Positions 4,974-38,679 of a DNA stretch of 64,000 nt are shown in pieces. Origin of the DNA: Acidobacteriota bacterium (GTDB lineage: Bacteria; Acidobacteriota; UBA6911; RPQK01; JAJDTT01); NCBI GenBank assembly GCA_965263035.1, contig OZ253580.1, forward strand, positions 1,120,001 through 1,184,000. The letters run 5' to 3'. The translations under genes and the position numbers were made by a program. Within the stretch, counting starts at the first letter, position 1. The number at the start of each line of letters is the position of its first letter. The notes beneath the pieces are model-generated. The model was not told the origin of the DNA, ran no database searches, and was given only the letters and a program-made list of their open reading frames with translations.

Positions 4974-5575
4974 GGCCCGGGGTTCCAATACGCCAGGACG
5001 GTGCTGCCGCCGTAGACTCGATCGCCTTCGCTGACAACCATGTCACAACTCCGTGGGAGGAACATATCGACCCGGCTGCCGAATCGGATCAGGCCTATTC
5101 TATCACCCCTGCCGACCACGTCTCCCTCATTCTTCCAGACCCGGATTCGGCGCGCCAGGATCCCGGCCACCAACGCGAAGGTCAGGGGCCGGTCCCCGGA
5201 AATGGTGAGAATGACCCGTTCGTTCTCCACCGAAGCCCGATCGTCCCAGGCGAGATGAAACCGCCCGGAGCGGTGTTCCTTCCGGACCAGGATACCCTCC
5301 ACGGGTGAACGATTGACGTGCACGTTCCATATCGAAAGGAAAATGCTGACCTCGGTGCCCTCCTCAAACGGTTTCACACGAACGATTTTTCCGTCCGCCG
5401 GGCTGACCACGGCGGCGGGATCATCAGGAATGGAACGGTTCGGATCGCGGAAAAAGTAGGCGACGAAAGCCGCTAGAACCAACGTCACCACGCCCAGGGC
5501 CACTACCTGGAGCCAAGTCAGGACCAAGGTCAATGCGACTAGTGGAAGAAAGAAGTAGTATCCGTCTCGGGCCAT
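4970..5575 (-). CDS. psd: Phosphatidylserine decarboxylase proenzyme
   Basis: FFRDP, SPADGK, NVHVNRSP, RFGSRVD autocleavage motif; likely start MARDGY at 5575 (the upstream ORF extension runs through a MITE). Confidence 0.95.
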   Translation of the reverse strand: MARDGYYFFLPLVALTLVLTWLQVVALGVVTLVLAAFVAYFFRDPNRSIPDDPAAVVSPADGKIVRVKPFEEGTEVSIFLSIWNVHVNRSPVEGILVRKEHRSGRFHLAWDDRASVENERVILTISGDRPLTFALVAGILARRIRVWKNEGDVVGRGDRIGLIRFGSRVDMFLPRSCDMVVSEGDRVYGGSTVLAYWNPGP

Positions 5576-5674
5576 AGGCGCATGCTCCGGACTCCGGCCG
5601 GGAGTCGACTCCAGATCGGGGTCCCCGGCACGACACGGGGCTCTTGCCAGGAAGGCATTCCCAGCCTGGACTGG

Positions 5675-5833
5675 GAGCCTACGCGGCAGAAATTGATCTA
5701 CTGCGAAAGCGGTAGAATCGGTCCATATTTCCCCGATTTCTCGGCGAATAGAACAACTATGCACCTCCAAATCGAGAAAATCTAGCCTCGATTCCCCGCT
5801 TTCTCGCTACGATCATTCCTACCGCGCAGACTC
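5675..5833 (+). mobile_element. MITE family A, copy 1 (159 bp)
   Basis: Near-identical to 18981-19139, 38521-38679 and 49484-49642; termini GAGCCTACGC...GCGCAGACTC; flanks CTGG/CTAG. Confidence 0.9.
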
Positions 5834-5885
5834 CTAGGAGGCTGTCCGAGAATGGAGCCGTCACCGACGCTTGTCTGTTTAAATA

Positions 5886-6050
5886 GGCCCGTCCGGGTCG
5901 CTCATGAGCGACCCGGACGGCGGTGGCTGGACCGTACCGACGCGGACTGTTAGGAACCGTTTGGGAGTGAGGTCGGCCACCGTCTTTCCCGATGTCCTGA
6001 ATGGATACAAGGGCATCAAGGCCCGAATGACAAGCACAGGAGACAGGAAA
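5886..6050 (+). ncRNA. IS110 bridge RNA (5' hairpin, target-binding loop, donor-binding loop)
   Basis: 32-bp perfect palindrome 5889-5920; stem CGGTGGCTGGACC/GGTCGGCCACCG enclosing ACCGACGC (5936-5943) and GGGAG (5963-5967); second stem enclosing ATGGATAC (6001-6008) and GACAAG (6029-6034); all four guides match the junction sequences. Confidence 0.88.
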
Positions 6051-6051
6051 G

Positions 6052-6996
6052 ATGAAACAGCATACCGTAGGCATCGACATCTCGAAAGCGCACCTGGACG
6101 CGCACCGGCTGGCCGACGGCCATTCCGCCCAGTTCGACAATGACCCGGCCGGCTTCCGGGCGCTGATCGATTGGATCGGAACTCCGGTCGAGTGCGTCGC
6201 CTACGAGGCCACCGGCCCCTACCACCGGGACCTCGAGGAAGCGCTGTCCAAAGCGAAGCTACCGTTGGCCAAGGTGAACCCCTGGCAGGCCCGATGTTTC
6301 GCCCGGGCGACCGGGAGCCGTGCCAAGACCGACGCCGTAGACGCTCGGAAACTGGCCCAGATGGCCGCCAGCCTGGATCCGCGCCGGACCCCGGCCCCGT
6401 CCAAAACGCAACGCCGGCTCCAGGAACTGCAGTCGGCCCGGGACGCGCTGATCCGCCAGCGCACGGCCCTGCTCAACCGCCGCCAACAGCTCCGCGAACC
6501 CTTGCTCAAACAGCAGAACCAGACCCAGATCAACATGTTCGAGCGCCACCTGCGCGCCATCGACCGCAAAATGCAGCAGCTGATTGCGGCCGACGAGGCG
6601 CGGGCCCGCAAGTTGGAGATCCTCACCTCCATTCCCGGGATCGCGGCCACCACCGCCGGTCTGCTGGCCGAGATGCCCGAGCTGGGCGCCCTCAGCGGCA
6701 AGGCCGCCGCCAGTCTGGCCGGGCTGGCCGCCGTTCCCCGCGAGTCCGGGACTTGGCAGGGCCGGGCGTTCATCCGGGGCGGACGGGCGCGGGCGCGACG
6801 GCTCCTGTACATGCCGACGGTGGCCGCCCTGCGCTGGAACCCCGACTTGGCCGAGGTGTACCGGAGGCTGAGAGAGCGCGGCAAGCCCGGCAAGGTGGCC
6901 CTCGTCGCCGTCATGCGCAAGCTCATCGTCCTGGCCAACACCCTCGTCCGGCAGGACCGCACCTGGTTGCCCGTAGCGCCCCGAGCGACCTTCTGA
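6052..6996 (+). CDS. IS110 family transposase/recombinase
   Basis: RuvC-like DEDD (GIDISK, YEATG, KTDAVDA); C-terminal SIPGI, RESG (catalytic Ser), GK..KVALVAVMRKL. Confidence 0.96.
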   Translation: MKQHTVGIDISKAHLDAHRLADGHSAQFDNDPAGFRALIDWIGTPVECVAYEATGPYHRDLEEALSKAKLPLAKVNPWQARCFARATGSRAKTDAVDARKLAQMAASLDPRRTPAPSKTQRRLQELQSARDALIRQRTALLNRRQQLREPLLKQQNQTQINMFERHLRAIDRKMQQLIAADEARARKLEILTSIPGIAATTAGLLAEMPELGALSGKAAASLAGLAAVPRESGTWQGRAFIRGGRARARRLLYMPTVAALRWNPDLAEVYRRLRERGKPGKVALVAVMRKLIVLANTLVRQDRTWLPVAPRATF

Positions 6997-7384
6997 GGCC
7001 ACGGAGAGACCCCGTGAGGAAAGGGAGCGTGTGGACCCCCTGATGGCCGTCTGTCGAACTTCCGGTCAGGTCTGGCCGGAAGCTTGCTTACGGCCATGAA
7101 AGCTCTTCAGGGCGTATCCGGACCTCCCGGAGGACTGACGTCGACGATCTCAGGCCCCTCGATCCAGTTGATCCGTCCACTCATCGCCCCCTCCACGGCG
7201 CCCGCTGGATCCAGCTCGATCTCCGCCTCACCTCTGGCGGAAGAACGCTCCTCCTAACCCTGTGCCTCTTGGACCGGACAGATCACGTACTAACGACACG
7301 GGATGGAAACACCGATTAGCACCCACCACTTGCAACATGGATACTCCCTAAAATAAGGGGAACAGATCATCAGGAGAGTGTCGG

Positions 7385-8902
7385 ATGCCCCCTCGCTTCA
7401 AAGCCTACCCGAAAGATTACTACCAGAGTCAGCTGTTTCCAGCTAACGTATTCGACTTGTTGCCGGAGGATCACGAGTGTTTCCTCTACCGGGATCTGTT
7501 TCGGCAGCTGGACACGACGGAAGTGGAGGCCCGGTACAGCCACCGGGGTCAGCGGGCCTACGCGCCGCGCCAGATCGTTTCGATCCTGATCTACGCCTAC
7601 AGTCACGGCGTGTACAGCTCGCGACAGATCGAGCAGCGCTGCCGGGAAGATCTCGGCTTCATGTACCTGGCGGGGAGGAACTGCCCGAACTTCCGGGTGT
7701 TGAGCGATTTCCGGAAGGACCGCGGGGAGTTCTTCCGGTCCTGTTTCAAGCAGACGGTGGAGTTGGCGATGGGGCTGGGGCTGGGGCTGGTGAGTTTGGG
7801 ACACGTGAGCCTGGACGGGTCCAAGTTCAAGGCGAACAGCTCGAAGCACAAGGCGATGAGTTACGGACGACTGAAGGAGAAGGAGAAGGAGCAGGAGTTG
7901 TGCGAGGAGATCGAGGCCTTGACCCGACAGGCCGATCGCTGCGACGAGCAAGAGGATCGAGCCTACGCGGAGCGGACCGGGTATGAGTTGCCGGAGGAAC
8001 TGCGCGACAAGCAGCAGCGGTTGCAGAAGATCCGGGAGACGAAACAGTCGCTGGAAGCGCGGGAGGCAAAGCTTCGACCGGGTCGGGAGATCGAGGACAA
8101 GAAGCAGCTCAGCTTTGCGGACCCCGAGGCGCGGATCATGAAGCAAAAAGGGGGGTTCGAGTACGCGTACAACGCGCAGATCAGCGTGGAGGAGACATCG
8201 CAGGTGATCGTGGGTCAGCACGTGAGCCAGCAGGCGAACGATTCCCAGGAGGTGGCTCGGGCGCTGGATGAGATGGAGGAGACGAGCGGTCGGTTGCCGG
8301 AGAAGCTGAGCCTGGACAACGGCTACTATTCGGGAAAGAACCTGCAGGAGGTGTCCGATCGTCAGGTGGAAGCGTACCTGGCGACGGACCGGGGCGAGCG
8401 GCGGGGGAAGGGAGAGCTGGAGGAGAGTGAGCGTCGGCTGGTGAAAGCGGACTTTCGTTACGACGGGGAGCGGGACGGGTTTCATTGTCCCGGCGGCCAA
8501 CTGCTGAGGTTGAAGACCCCCCGCGGCACGGGACAGCGGGTGTATCAGGGGGACATCGAGGAGTGCCGATCCTGTGCCTACTATCGTCGGTGCTGCCGGT
8601 CGAAGTCAGGGGCGGCGCGCACGATCACGAGCGACGGGAAGGAGCCGTTGCGACGGGCGATGAACGAGCGGATGTCGAAACCGGAGAGCCGAGCGCTCTA
8701 CGCGCGTCGCAAGACGATCGTCGAGCCGGTATTCGGGCAGATCAAGAACTCGGGATTTCGGGGATTCGGGCTGCGGGGCAAGGAGAAAGTGGCCGGGGAG
8801 TTCTCCTTGGTCTGCGTGGCGCACAATCTCAAAAAGATCATGCTTGCGGCTCTGCGGGGAGAGGTGTGTCCGGAGTTCGGGAAGCGAGCGGCCTGGGCGT
8901 AA
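7385..8902 (+). CDS. IS1182 family transposase
   Basis: DUF772-like N-terminus (YSSRQIEQ..REDLGFMYL), LDGSKFKAN, YNAQI, LDNGYYS, RKTIVEPVFGQIK. Confidence 0.95.
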   Translation: MPPRFKAYPKDYYQSQLFPANVFDLLPEDHECFLYRDLFRQLDTTEVEARYSHRGQRAYAPRQIVSILIYAYSHGVYSSRQIEQRCREDLGFMYLAGRNCPNFRVLSDFRKDRGEFFRSCFKQTVELAMGLGLGLVSLGHVSLDGSKFKANSSKHKAMSYGRLKEKEKEQELCEEIEALTRQADRCDEQEDRAYAERTGYELPEELRDKQQRLQKIRETKQSLEAREAKLRPGREIEDKKQLSFADPEARIMKQKGGFEYAYNAQISVEETSQVIVGQHVSQQANDSQEVARALDEMEETSGRLPEKLSLDNGYYSGKNLQEVSDRQVEAYLATDRGERRGKGELEESERRLVKADFRYDGERDGFHCPGGQLLRLKTPRGTGQRVYQGDIEECRSCAYYRRCCRSKSGAARTITSDGKEPLRRAMNERMSKPESRALYARRKTIVEPVFGQIKNSGFRGFGLRGKEKVAGEFSLVCVAHNLKKIMLAALRGEVCPEFGKRAAWA

Positions 8903-9094
8903 AAAAGGGGCGGATAAGGGCGGATGAAGTCAAAAATCGGCCGCTGTAGCCTCTTTCCGAGTCGGAATTAGAGCAGCCCATCGATTCCTTCGGCTCCGGA
9001 GGCCAGGCTTCGAGGGTCTTCGGAGCCTTGGGCCATTGCCCCTGAGCATGGTTACGGGTGAAGGTCACTCAATGTCGAGTTCTCGGACAGCCTC

Positions 9095-9325
9095 CTAGCC
9101 AGTCTGGACCTCCATCTGGTGTCGATGGATGATGACCTGCATCTGGTCCTTCAAGGCCAGCTTCTTTTTTTTGATGACGCTCTCACGCATCTTCTCTTCC
9201 GGGTTCAGGTAGACCTTGCGAACGAGCTCCTCCAGTTGGCGTTCGTACCCCTGATGCTCCAAGGCGAGCCGCGAAAACTCCTTGTCCGTTTCCATCAGAT
9301 GATTCTTGAGAGCGGCTTCATCCAT
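9095..9325 (-). CDS. YdcH/DUF465 family small coiled-coil protein
   Basis: EF..L..EHQ.YE..L.......KKKKLALKDQM pattern; its TAG stop lies in the CTAG target site of IS1182. Confidence 0.85.
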   Translation of the reverse strand: MDEAALKNHLMETDKEFSRLALEHQGYERQLEELVRKVYLNPEEKMRESVIKKKKLALKDQMQVIIHRHQMEVQTG

Positions 9326-38520: not shown

Positions 38521-38679
38521 GAGTCTGCGCGGTAGGAATGATCGTAGCGAGAAAGTGGGGAATCGAGGCCAGATTTTCTCGATGTGGAGGTGCATAGTTG
38601 TTCTATTCGCCGAGAAATCGGGGAAATATGGACCGATTCTACCGCTTTCGCAGTAGATCAATTTCTGCCGCGCAGGATC
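38521..38679 (-). mobile_element. MITE family A, copy 3
   Basis: Reverse-oriented copy flanked by CTAG (38517-38520, 38680-38683). Confidence 0.92.

Follow-up and report, generated by a model that had tools for sequence, protein, structure and literature searches.

A probable IS621-type bridge RNA system in the left end of an IS1182 element of an Acidobacteriota genome

Organization of the locus

The stretch of DNA analysed here (hereafter the window) comprises 64,000 nucleotides (nt), positions 1,120,001 to 1,184,000 of contig OZ253580.1 (assembly GCA_965263035.1), which represents the 6.2 Mb genome of an Acidobacteriota bacterium in one contig. An insertion sequence (IS) of the IS110 family is situated there within another one of the IS1182 family. 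The IS110-family element extends from 5872 to 7345 (1474 bp including the CT core on its right) and consists of a left end of 180 nt, a bridge recombinase gene (6052–6996, 314 amino acids) and a right end of 349 nt (6997–7345). With a probability of around 90%, we regard it as a natural bridge system of the IS621 type, the left end of which encodes a bridge RNA of about 165 nt. This reading is carried by the anatomy of the element, the matches between guides and flanks, their covariation among copies, compensatory changes in the RNA stems, the conserved catalytic residues of the recombinase and the existence of empty target sites. Positions of up to five digits refer to the window and longer ones to the contig; all parts of the two elements in the window are on its forward strand.

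Both boundaries are sharp, as the similarity common to the 12 full copies of the element in this genome begins and ends exactly at 5872 and 7345. An earlier note, made from the letters of the window alone, had read the left junction as ACCGACG (5863–5869), CT (5870–5871) and TGTC (5872–5875), and the right junction as ATGGATA (7337–7343), CT (7344–7345) and CCC (7346–7348); every one of these segments is found exactly there. ATGGATA constitutes the left donor within the right end, and the CT core is present at both junctions in all full copies. The element lacks terminal inverted repeats, its ends TGTCTGTTT... and ...CATGGATA not being inverted copies of each other.

Recombinase

The deduced protein matches the Pfam families PF01548 (DEDD_Tnp_IS110; 5.4e-23) and PF02371 (Transposase_20; 1.5e-15) and scores 199 bits, at a cut-off of 140, with the NCBIfam model NF033542 ("IS110 family RNA-guided transposase"). 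Over nearly its full length (residues 3–298 of 314) it can be aligned to the solved bridge recombinases ISCro4 (3.6e-34) and IS621 (1.2e-30). These matches bear out the IS110/IS621-type identity that the earlier note had assigned. In the alignment, D9, E52, D94 and D97 correspond to D11, E60, D102 and D105 of IS621, such that the N-terminal RuvC-like DEDD domain is present, and S232–G233 in the motif RESG corresponds to S241–G242 in YESG of IS621, in a C-terminal Tnp domain with a predicted catalytic serine. The roles of these catalytic residues are described for IS621 in PMC11208158.

Bridge RNA

The left end contains four guide segments at precisely the positions already proposed: ACCGACGC (5936–5943) and GGGAG (5963–5967), which together read the target, and ATGGATAC (6001–6008) and GACAAG (6029–6034), which together read the donor. 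The left target guide has the sense of the left flank, and the right target guide is the reverse complement of the right flank, core included. The donor guide ATGGATAC equals 7337–7344, and GACAAG is the reverse complement of 5870–5875. This is the arrangement described for the IS621 bridge RNA, with left guides in the sense of the top strand and right guides complementary, core included (PMC11208160). When both strands were considered, the pattern ACCGACGC-N10-30-GGGAG occurs once in the window (0.25 expected per shuffled window), and ATGGATAC-N10-30-GACAAG likewise once (0.03 expected). Both pairs lie within one stretch of 180 nt, in the expected order and on the correct strand. A chance origin of the guide patterns is excluded.

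Folded without constraints, the 180 nt of the left end reach a z-score of -6.1 relative to 200 shuffles, and with the guides held unpaired each guide pair falls into an internal loop of its own, which confirms the two-loop RNA postulated beforehand. The fold begins with a 5' stem-loop (5889–5920) of 14 bp and a loop of 4 nt. The target-binding loop follows (5921–5982), recognized by folding, by the conservation of its stem and by the covariation of guide and target: a basal stem (5921–5933 with 5971–5982) encloses the left target guide on the 5' side of the internal loop, a weak distal hairpin (5945–5961) and, on the 3' side, the right target guide with the handshake positions 5968–5969. The donor-binding loop (5984–6051), recognized by folding and stem conservation, possesses two basal stems (5984–5989 with 6046–6051, and 5995–5999 with 6037–6041), the left donor guide, a distal hairpin (6011–6024) and the right donor guide with the handshake positions 6035–6036. 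Pairing with the non-cognate DNA is possible for both U5968 (with donor A7) and C6035 (with target G7), as in the handshake pairing at position 7 reported for IS621 (PMC11208158).

A covariance model built from seven acidobacterial RNAs detects the RNA in five of eight further genomes belonging to this genus, and in none of the 12 more distant genomes searched. In the search of Rfam 15 over 5500–7700 (E<=1), just two chance matches to microRNA models were obtained, so that no curated family covers the bridge RNA. Since a MAFFT alignment misaligned the alphaproteobacterial RNAs, a model-based alignment of 12 sequences was used instead, for which wrong-strand matches to palindromic hairpins were removed from the model search by E<=1e-9, keeping 12 of 17 sources. 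In this alignment, which is fitted to the model and thereby favours the structure, 97.9% of the cells of the 41 modelled pairs are standard pairs, and both partners are changed in 13 pairs; this level is not attained by any of 500 shuffles, and slid controls are 33–52% paired. Concerning the 5' stem-loop, eight of its 14 pairs are changed on both sides among the relatives. The seven acidobacterial RNAs are variable in 19 of the 37 target-loop columns, as opposed to 8 of 129 elsewhere, and four of these eight belong to two compensatory pairs in the 5' hairpin.

The structure might instead act mainly in cis, as a leader of the transposase mRNA that controls translation and not the choice of DNA. 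Such a role would suit the stem CUUUCC/GGAAAG at the base of the second loop, which spans the ribosome-binding region immediately upstream of the ATG; this stem (5984–5989 with 6046–6051) is conserved and ends one base before the start codon. It fails to explain, however, that the loop nucleotides track the flanks through seven targets while the stems remain constant. As the main function of the left end a leader is thus highly improbable, although leader and guide roles are not mutually exclusive.

Copies of the element and covariation of guides and targets

The search for other copies suggested by the earlier note yielded 13 left ends in the genome, 12 of them in copies with both ends and one in a truncated copy, and their flanks indeed track the left guides: all seven positions match in 12 of the 13. 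Sister copies show 13–63 nucleotide substitutions in about 1474 aligned bases and are thus roughly 96–99% identical. The donor guides and both ends of the element are identical in all copies, and the left target guide exists in two forms, ACCGACG (three copies) and ACCGCCG (ten copies), which differ by a single nucleotide, A vs. C, at guide position 5 (5940 in the window copy). All three copies with the ACCGACG guide are situated at ACCGACG-CT-CCC within left ends of IS1182, whereas all ten with the ACCGCCG guide are situated at a hairpin repeat resembling repetitive extragenic palindromic (REP) sequences, where the flank reads ACCGCCG-CT in nine cases and GCCGCCG-CT in one. The right guide matches the core plus two further positions in 10 of 12 copies. 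It reads GGGAG in nine copies, seven of which are found at CT-CCC and two at CT-CCT, and AGGAG in one copy, which matches its target CT-CCT perfectly; the remaining three, with AGCAG, are treated below. Free occurrences in the whole genome number 91 for ACCGCCGCTCC and 7 for ACCGACGCTCC.

Relatives with transposases 84–94% identical were found in metagenome-assembled genomes (MAGs) of Acidobacteriota, and others with 42–45% identity in MAGs of Alphaproteobacteria. All of them keep the donor ATGGATA-CT-TGTC, and guide and flank again agree: perfectly in three of four cases for GTCGCCG (the fourth with a single mismatch), in two of two for ACCGCCG, in one of one for GACGCCG and in two of two for CACGCCG. 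In the alphaproteobacterial group, TTCGTGTCT stands against the flank TTCGTGT-CT and the right guide CGTGAG against CT-CACG, with single flank mismatches in some copies. A further subfamily exhibits a left match of 5 nt and a right match of 7 nt (GAGGGAG against CT-CCCTC).

The target of the majority is the 3' arm of the REP-like hairpin CGGCGG-N7-8-CCGCCG, which often occurs in tandem arrays of about 24-nt units (e.g., 6067440–6067480). The IS1182 target likewise follows a small hairpin (CGTC-ACC-GACG), and in both target types the CT core is situated directly after the stem. These targets recall the stem-loop requirement reported for the target of ISPpu10 (bioRxiv 10.64898/2026.03.19.712850).

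Length differences among copies are found in both ends. The right ends of nine of the 12 full copies contain an inserted palindrome of 78–79 bp with perfect arms (e.g., 653373–653450), which hold the near-target CCCGGCG-CT-CCC. It is missing from the window copy and from two further copies; the insertion point corresponds to 7108/7109, and loose ends of sequencing-run contigs at this point also show the palindrome. Since its presence does not follow the guide type, gain, loss or exchange between copies is suggested. Concerning the left end, three loci of relatives (L066–L068, at about 810–1640 of the loci themselves) are expanded to around 800 nt by repeated DNA containing GGGAAATCTCTGATTTTCCACA; the same repeat also follows the truncated copy of this genome (5835261 region).

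The IS1182 target element

The interrupted IS1182 spans 5834–9098, its inverted repeats of 19 bp beginning at 5834 and ending at 9098. The left 38 bp (5834–5871) comprise the terminal inverted repeat CTAGGAGGCTGTCCGAGAA, the target ACCGACG and the CT core, and the same left end is present on uninterrupted IS1182 copies. The remainder (7346–9098) contains the right target CCC (7346–7348), a transposase gene (7385–8902; 505 amino acids; 403 bits with NF033551 at a cut-off of 270; Pfam DDE_Tnp_1_6 and DUF772) and the right inverted repeat. The earlier note had located the target about 33 bp inside the left end of an IS1182; the host element is confirmed by NF033551, whereas the distance requires correction, the CT core occupying positions 37–38 counted from 5834. 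The target as a whole corresponds to positions 30–41 of IS1182 and lies between the left inverted repeat and the transposase gene.

Around ten copies or fragments of IS1182 are present in the genome. Three carry the IS110 element, and a fourth (89% identical) holds a remnant of the right end at the same site. Four full-length copies (91% identical) with ACCGAAG-CT-CCT are empty, as are two defective copies with a perfect site. The empty site that had been predicted exists as a 20-mer exactly once in this genome, twice in one relative (G007) and once in another (G008); G007 contains elements of the ACCGCCG and GTCGCCG types, and no ACCGACG guide was seen there. That the element may parasitise a multicopy mobile target, as first supposed, would apply to the ACCGACG copies (3 of 3), which form a minority lineage of 3 among 13, the other 10 being situated at the REP-like repeat.

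The C at guide position 5 is common to four guide variants including that of the outgroup, so the A appears to be derived by parsimony. In a tree of 18 elements calculated without the target loop, the position of the ACCGACG copies was not resolved, and the derived status of the A is accordingly a matter of parsimony across the guide variants. By this criterion, the targeting of IS1182 would represent a recent retargeting by a single nucleotide. We offer, tentatively and as a doubtful proposition, a scenario in which the change from C to A in the guide moved a lineage from the REP-like repeat (91 free sites) to the end of IS1182, and IS1182 copies with ACCGAAG escape (none of four occupied). 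In this scenario the target loop would be a hypervariable cassette whose variation departs from the tree of the remaining element, as an exchange of guides between copies might bring about, and the whole would amount to an arms race of transposon against transposon.

The three IS1182-borne copies could also descend from a single entry of IS110 into IS1182, possibly by an off-target insertion of an ACCGCCG-guided copy with one mismatch, after which the composite spread by IS1182 transposition or by homologous recombination; there would then be no real programming for IS1182. The composite in the window and that at 3693744–3696976 are 99% identical over IS110 and the IS1182 body, the inverted repeats and transposase of IS1182 are intact around the insert, insertion at half-matched or mismatched sites has been reported for IS621 (bioRxiv 10.64898/2026.08.31.748434), and the tree does not split the three copies into separate events. 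The three IS1182 contexts differ, however, the copy at 651963 being just 88% identical; between the window copy and the copy at 3695500, the left 38 bp show six differences, while the bodies differ by about 1%; the fourth IS1182 holds its remnant at the same site; and the matching A in the guides of all three copies is not predicted by a pure off-target event. We therefore consider a single entry unlikely.

The left 38 bp just mentioned (5834–5871 vs. 3696977–3697014) differ in this way between composites that are about 99% identical over the remaining 3.2 kb, and the left IS1182 piece of the window matches that of the third, 88% identical IS1182. This mismatch beside an almost identical rest indicates that the elements are mosaic, and the composites probably arose as mosaics by recombination across resident IS110 copies. 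In the fourth IS1182 copy, the IS110 right-end remnant (243 bp; region 4205113–4205524) adjoins IS1182 at the usual site, and a further piece of the right end (80% identical), in inverted orientation, is situated 86 bp from it; the arrangement looks like the scar of a rearrangement.

Further observations concern IS1182 itself. At 1608372–1608420, an IS1182 right inverted repeat directly adjoins the left repeat of one IS1182 copy (TTCTCGGACAGCCTCCTAGGAGGCTGTCCGAGAA); this could be a solo repeat, or else an arrangement in tandem or like a circle junction. Right repeats of 24–28 bp also occur solo, in about 16 copies scattered over the genome. At 5671–5837, the window contains a repeat of 167 bp resembling a miniature inverted-repeat transposable element (MITE). 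There are 159 near-full-length copies of it in the genome, 97–99% identical among the 40 copies listed, and a second one in the window lies at 38521–38664. Its ends CTAGGAGCCTGCGC...GCGCAGACTCCTAG resemble the inverted repeat of IS1182, with CTAG (5834–5837) common to the repeat and the start of IS1182, whereas the target of IS110 is absent from it. The IS1182 transposase may mobilise this repeat as a non-autonomous derivative.

Proposed mobile cycle

Circle formation, transcription from a junction promoter and present-day activity are what we infer for the element, with IS621 as the guide. By analogy, the circle would join 7345 to 5872 and thus place the candidate -35 box TTGCAA of the right end (7330–7335) 17 nt upstream of the candidate extended -10 box TGtTTAAAT of the left end (5876–5884), the latter being proposed from the sequence after the promoter of IS621, which is split between right end (-35) and left end (-10) (PMC11208160). 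The motif TTGCA(A/T), followed by CATGGATACT, is kept in the right ends of the relatives. Such a promoter would exist in the circular form alone, and transcription from it would begin at the base of the 5' hairpin. The donor loop would then read the joined ends ATGGATA-CT-TGTC and the target loop ACCGACG-CT-CCC in the end of IS1182, and the DEDD/Ser recombinase would exchange strands at the core, after CT. A scan of 5700–7500 in the integrated state for promoters and terminators found nothing.

Several candidate signals were discarded. A hybrid outward promoter at the right end, directed into the transposase gene of IS1182, was rejected on account of its spacing of 13 nt. Precise joints skipping 1474 nt in contigs of two runs (X1, X3) were rejected as excisions, since they are explained by an empty paralogue at 4173827; a contig joint carrying CCCAAATCTCG corresponds to a fragment at 1954209. 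The higher summed depth at 5883–6004 in run X15 is not interpretable.

Evidence weighing against the bridge system

A number of observations speak against a functional, strictly guided bridge system in this place. Concerning the guides, both left guides agree with the CT core in its C alone; in place of the U that should follow, the target guide has G and the donor guide A. Two of the GGGAG copies require a G-T wobble at the third base of the right target. The right guide AGCAG of three copies, one of which is truncated and without right junction, mismatches the targets CT-CTC and CT-CCT, which is evidence against a strict guide code; possible explanations are the insertion at a half match, as reported for IS621 in the bioRxiv manuscript cited above, or mobilisation in trans by sister RNAs. 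The three IS1182-borne copies are possibly not independent insertions. Concerning expression and mobility, the candidate junction promoter is weak, TTGCAA and TTAAAT matching in 4 of 6 positions each, and it would fail the criteria of the scan. The circle junction ATGGATACTTGT occurs zero times in the assembly, and no back-joint was found in the contigs of four sequencing runs, which drop rare forms. Contigs of RNA libraries cover 5914–6468, where carry-over of DNA is possible, such that they give no proof of transcription.

Concerning the protein, nine copies possess a reading frame of 315 amino acids and the window copy one of 314, and the frames of three other copies are broken. Alone among the 12 full-length copies, the window copy lacks one alanine in IAATTA(A)GLL, near 6652, and it may be impaired by the loss of this codon. 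It could thus be a dead relic of a working family, with an inactive protein of 314 amino acids, that moves just via the protein of sister copies. Besides being unique, the deletion of 3 nt lies in the Tnp domain just after the motif IPGI, where the alignment with IS621 needs a gap of one residue, and it is absent from the metagenome contigs, in which CCG is restored at 6652 in four of four runs. In favour of an active protein, the frame is open with all five catalytic residues present, and the deletion takes one alanine from a short run of small residues. That the window copy is dead is a serious possibility, if somewhat short of what we expect.

Comparison with known systems

In its general organization, the element is most similar to IS621 and ISCro4 (Durrant et al. 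2024, PMC11208160; Hiraizumi et al. 2024, PMC11208158): the recombinase consists of a DEDD RuvC-like domain and a Tnp domain with catalytic serine, the RNA is encoded ahead of the gene, within the left end, and comprises a 5' hairpin with a target and a donor loop, the target consists of 7 nt on the left, the CT core and a short right part with handshake pairing at position 7, and the (here candidate) -35 and -10 boxes are distributed over the right and left end, respectively. Like the sister copies at the REP-like repeat, IS621 has a relation to such sequences, REP being among the sites analysed for its insertions in PMC11208160, and ISPpu9 is described as inserting into REP sequences. Despite this similarity there are differences from IS621: the protein alignment, though nearly full-length, is distant; the left guides pair with the first core base alone; the right end, with 349 nt, is long; in one lineage, the target is situated in the end of another IS; and the host is uncultured, its close relatives being Acidobacteriota MAGs.

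Natural redirection of such guide RNAs is already in print (PMC11187229, PMC11208160). PMC11187229 (Siddiquee et al. 2024) presents the seekRNA-guided IS1111/IS110 pairs ISEc11/ISXne4 and ISEc21/ISMch6, in which, as here, the RNA stems are kept and the target-matching segments replaced, each element being found at its own matching target. The members of those pairs are described there as separate ISs of different hosts, with transposases about 72% identical and mostly different targets, whereas the switch reported here involves one nucleotide between copies in one genome. Keyword searches of the literature returned neither an IS110-type element described within IS1182 nor a guide switch of one nucleotide between the copies of a single genome.

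IS4321 and IS5075 are reportedly insertion sequences with a DEDD transposase and a specific target in the end of another mobile element. They are of the IS1111 type, in which the inverted repeats are subterminal and the RNA follows the gene, whereas the present element is of the IS110 type and its target is situated 30–41 bp inside IS1182, just past the repeat of 19 bp.

Bridge systems of the IS621 type have been described since 2024, and no new mechanism is added here. The locus is of value as a clean, naturally occurring data set on a system that genome engineering now employs: 13 near-identical copies together with close relatives share one donor and exhibit at least seven target specificities, among them a one-nucleotide guide switch, a variant that tolerates mismatches of the right guide, and unoccupied near-cognate ACCGAAG sites. 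They provide testable pairs for the discrimination of single mismatches by a bridge recombinase distant from IS621. Elements of the IS110 type, like IS4321 and IS5075 of the IS1111 type, can live inside the ends of other transposons, and if the switch from the REP-like repeat to IS1182 took place as tentatively proposed, an arms race of transposon against transposon would be readable here at the resolution of a single nucleotide.

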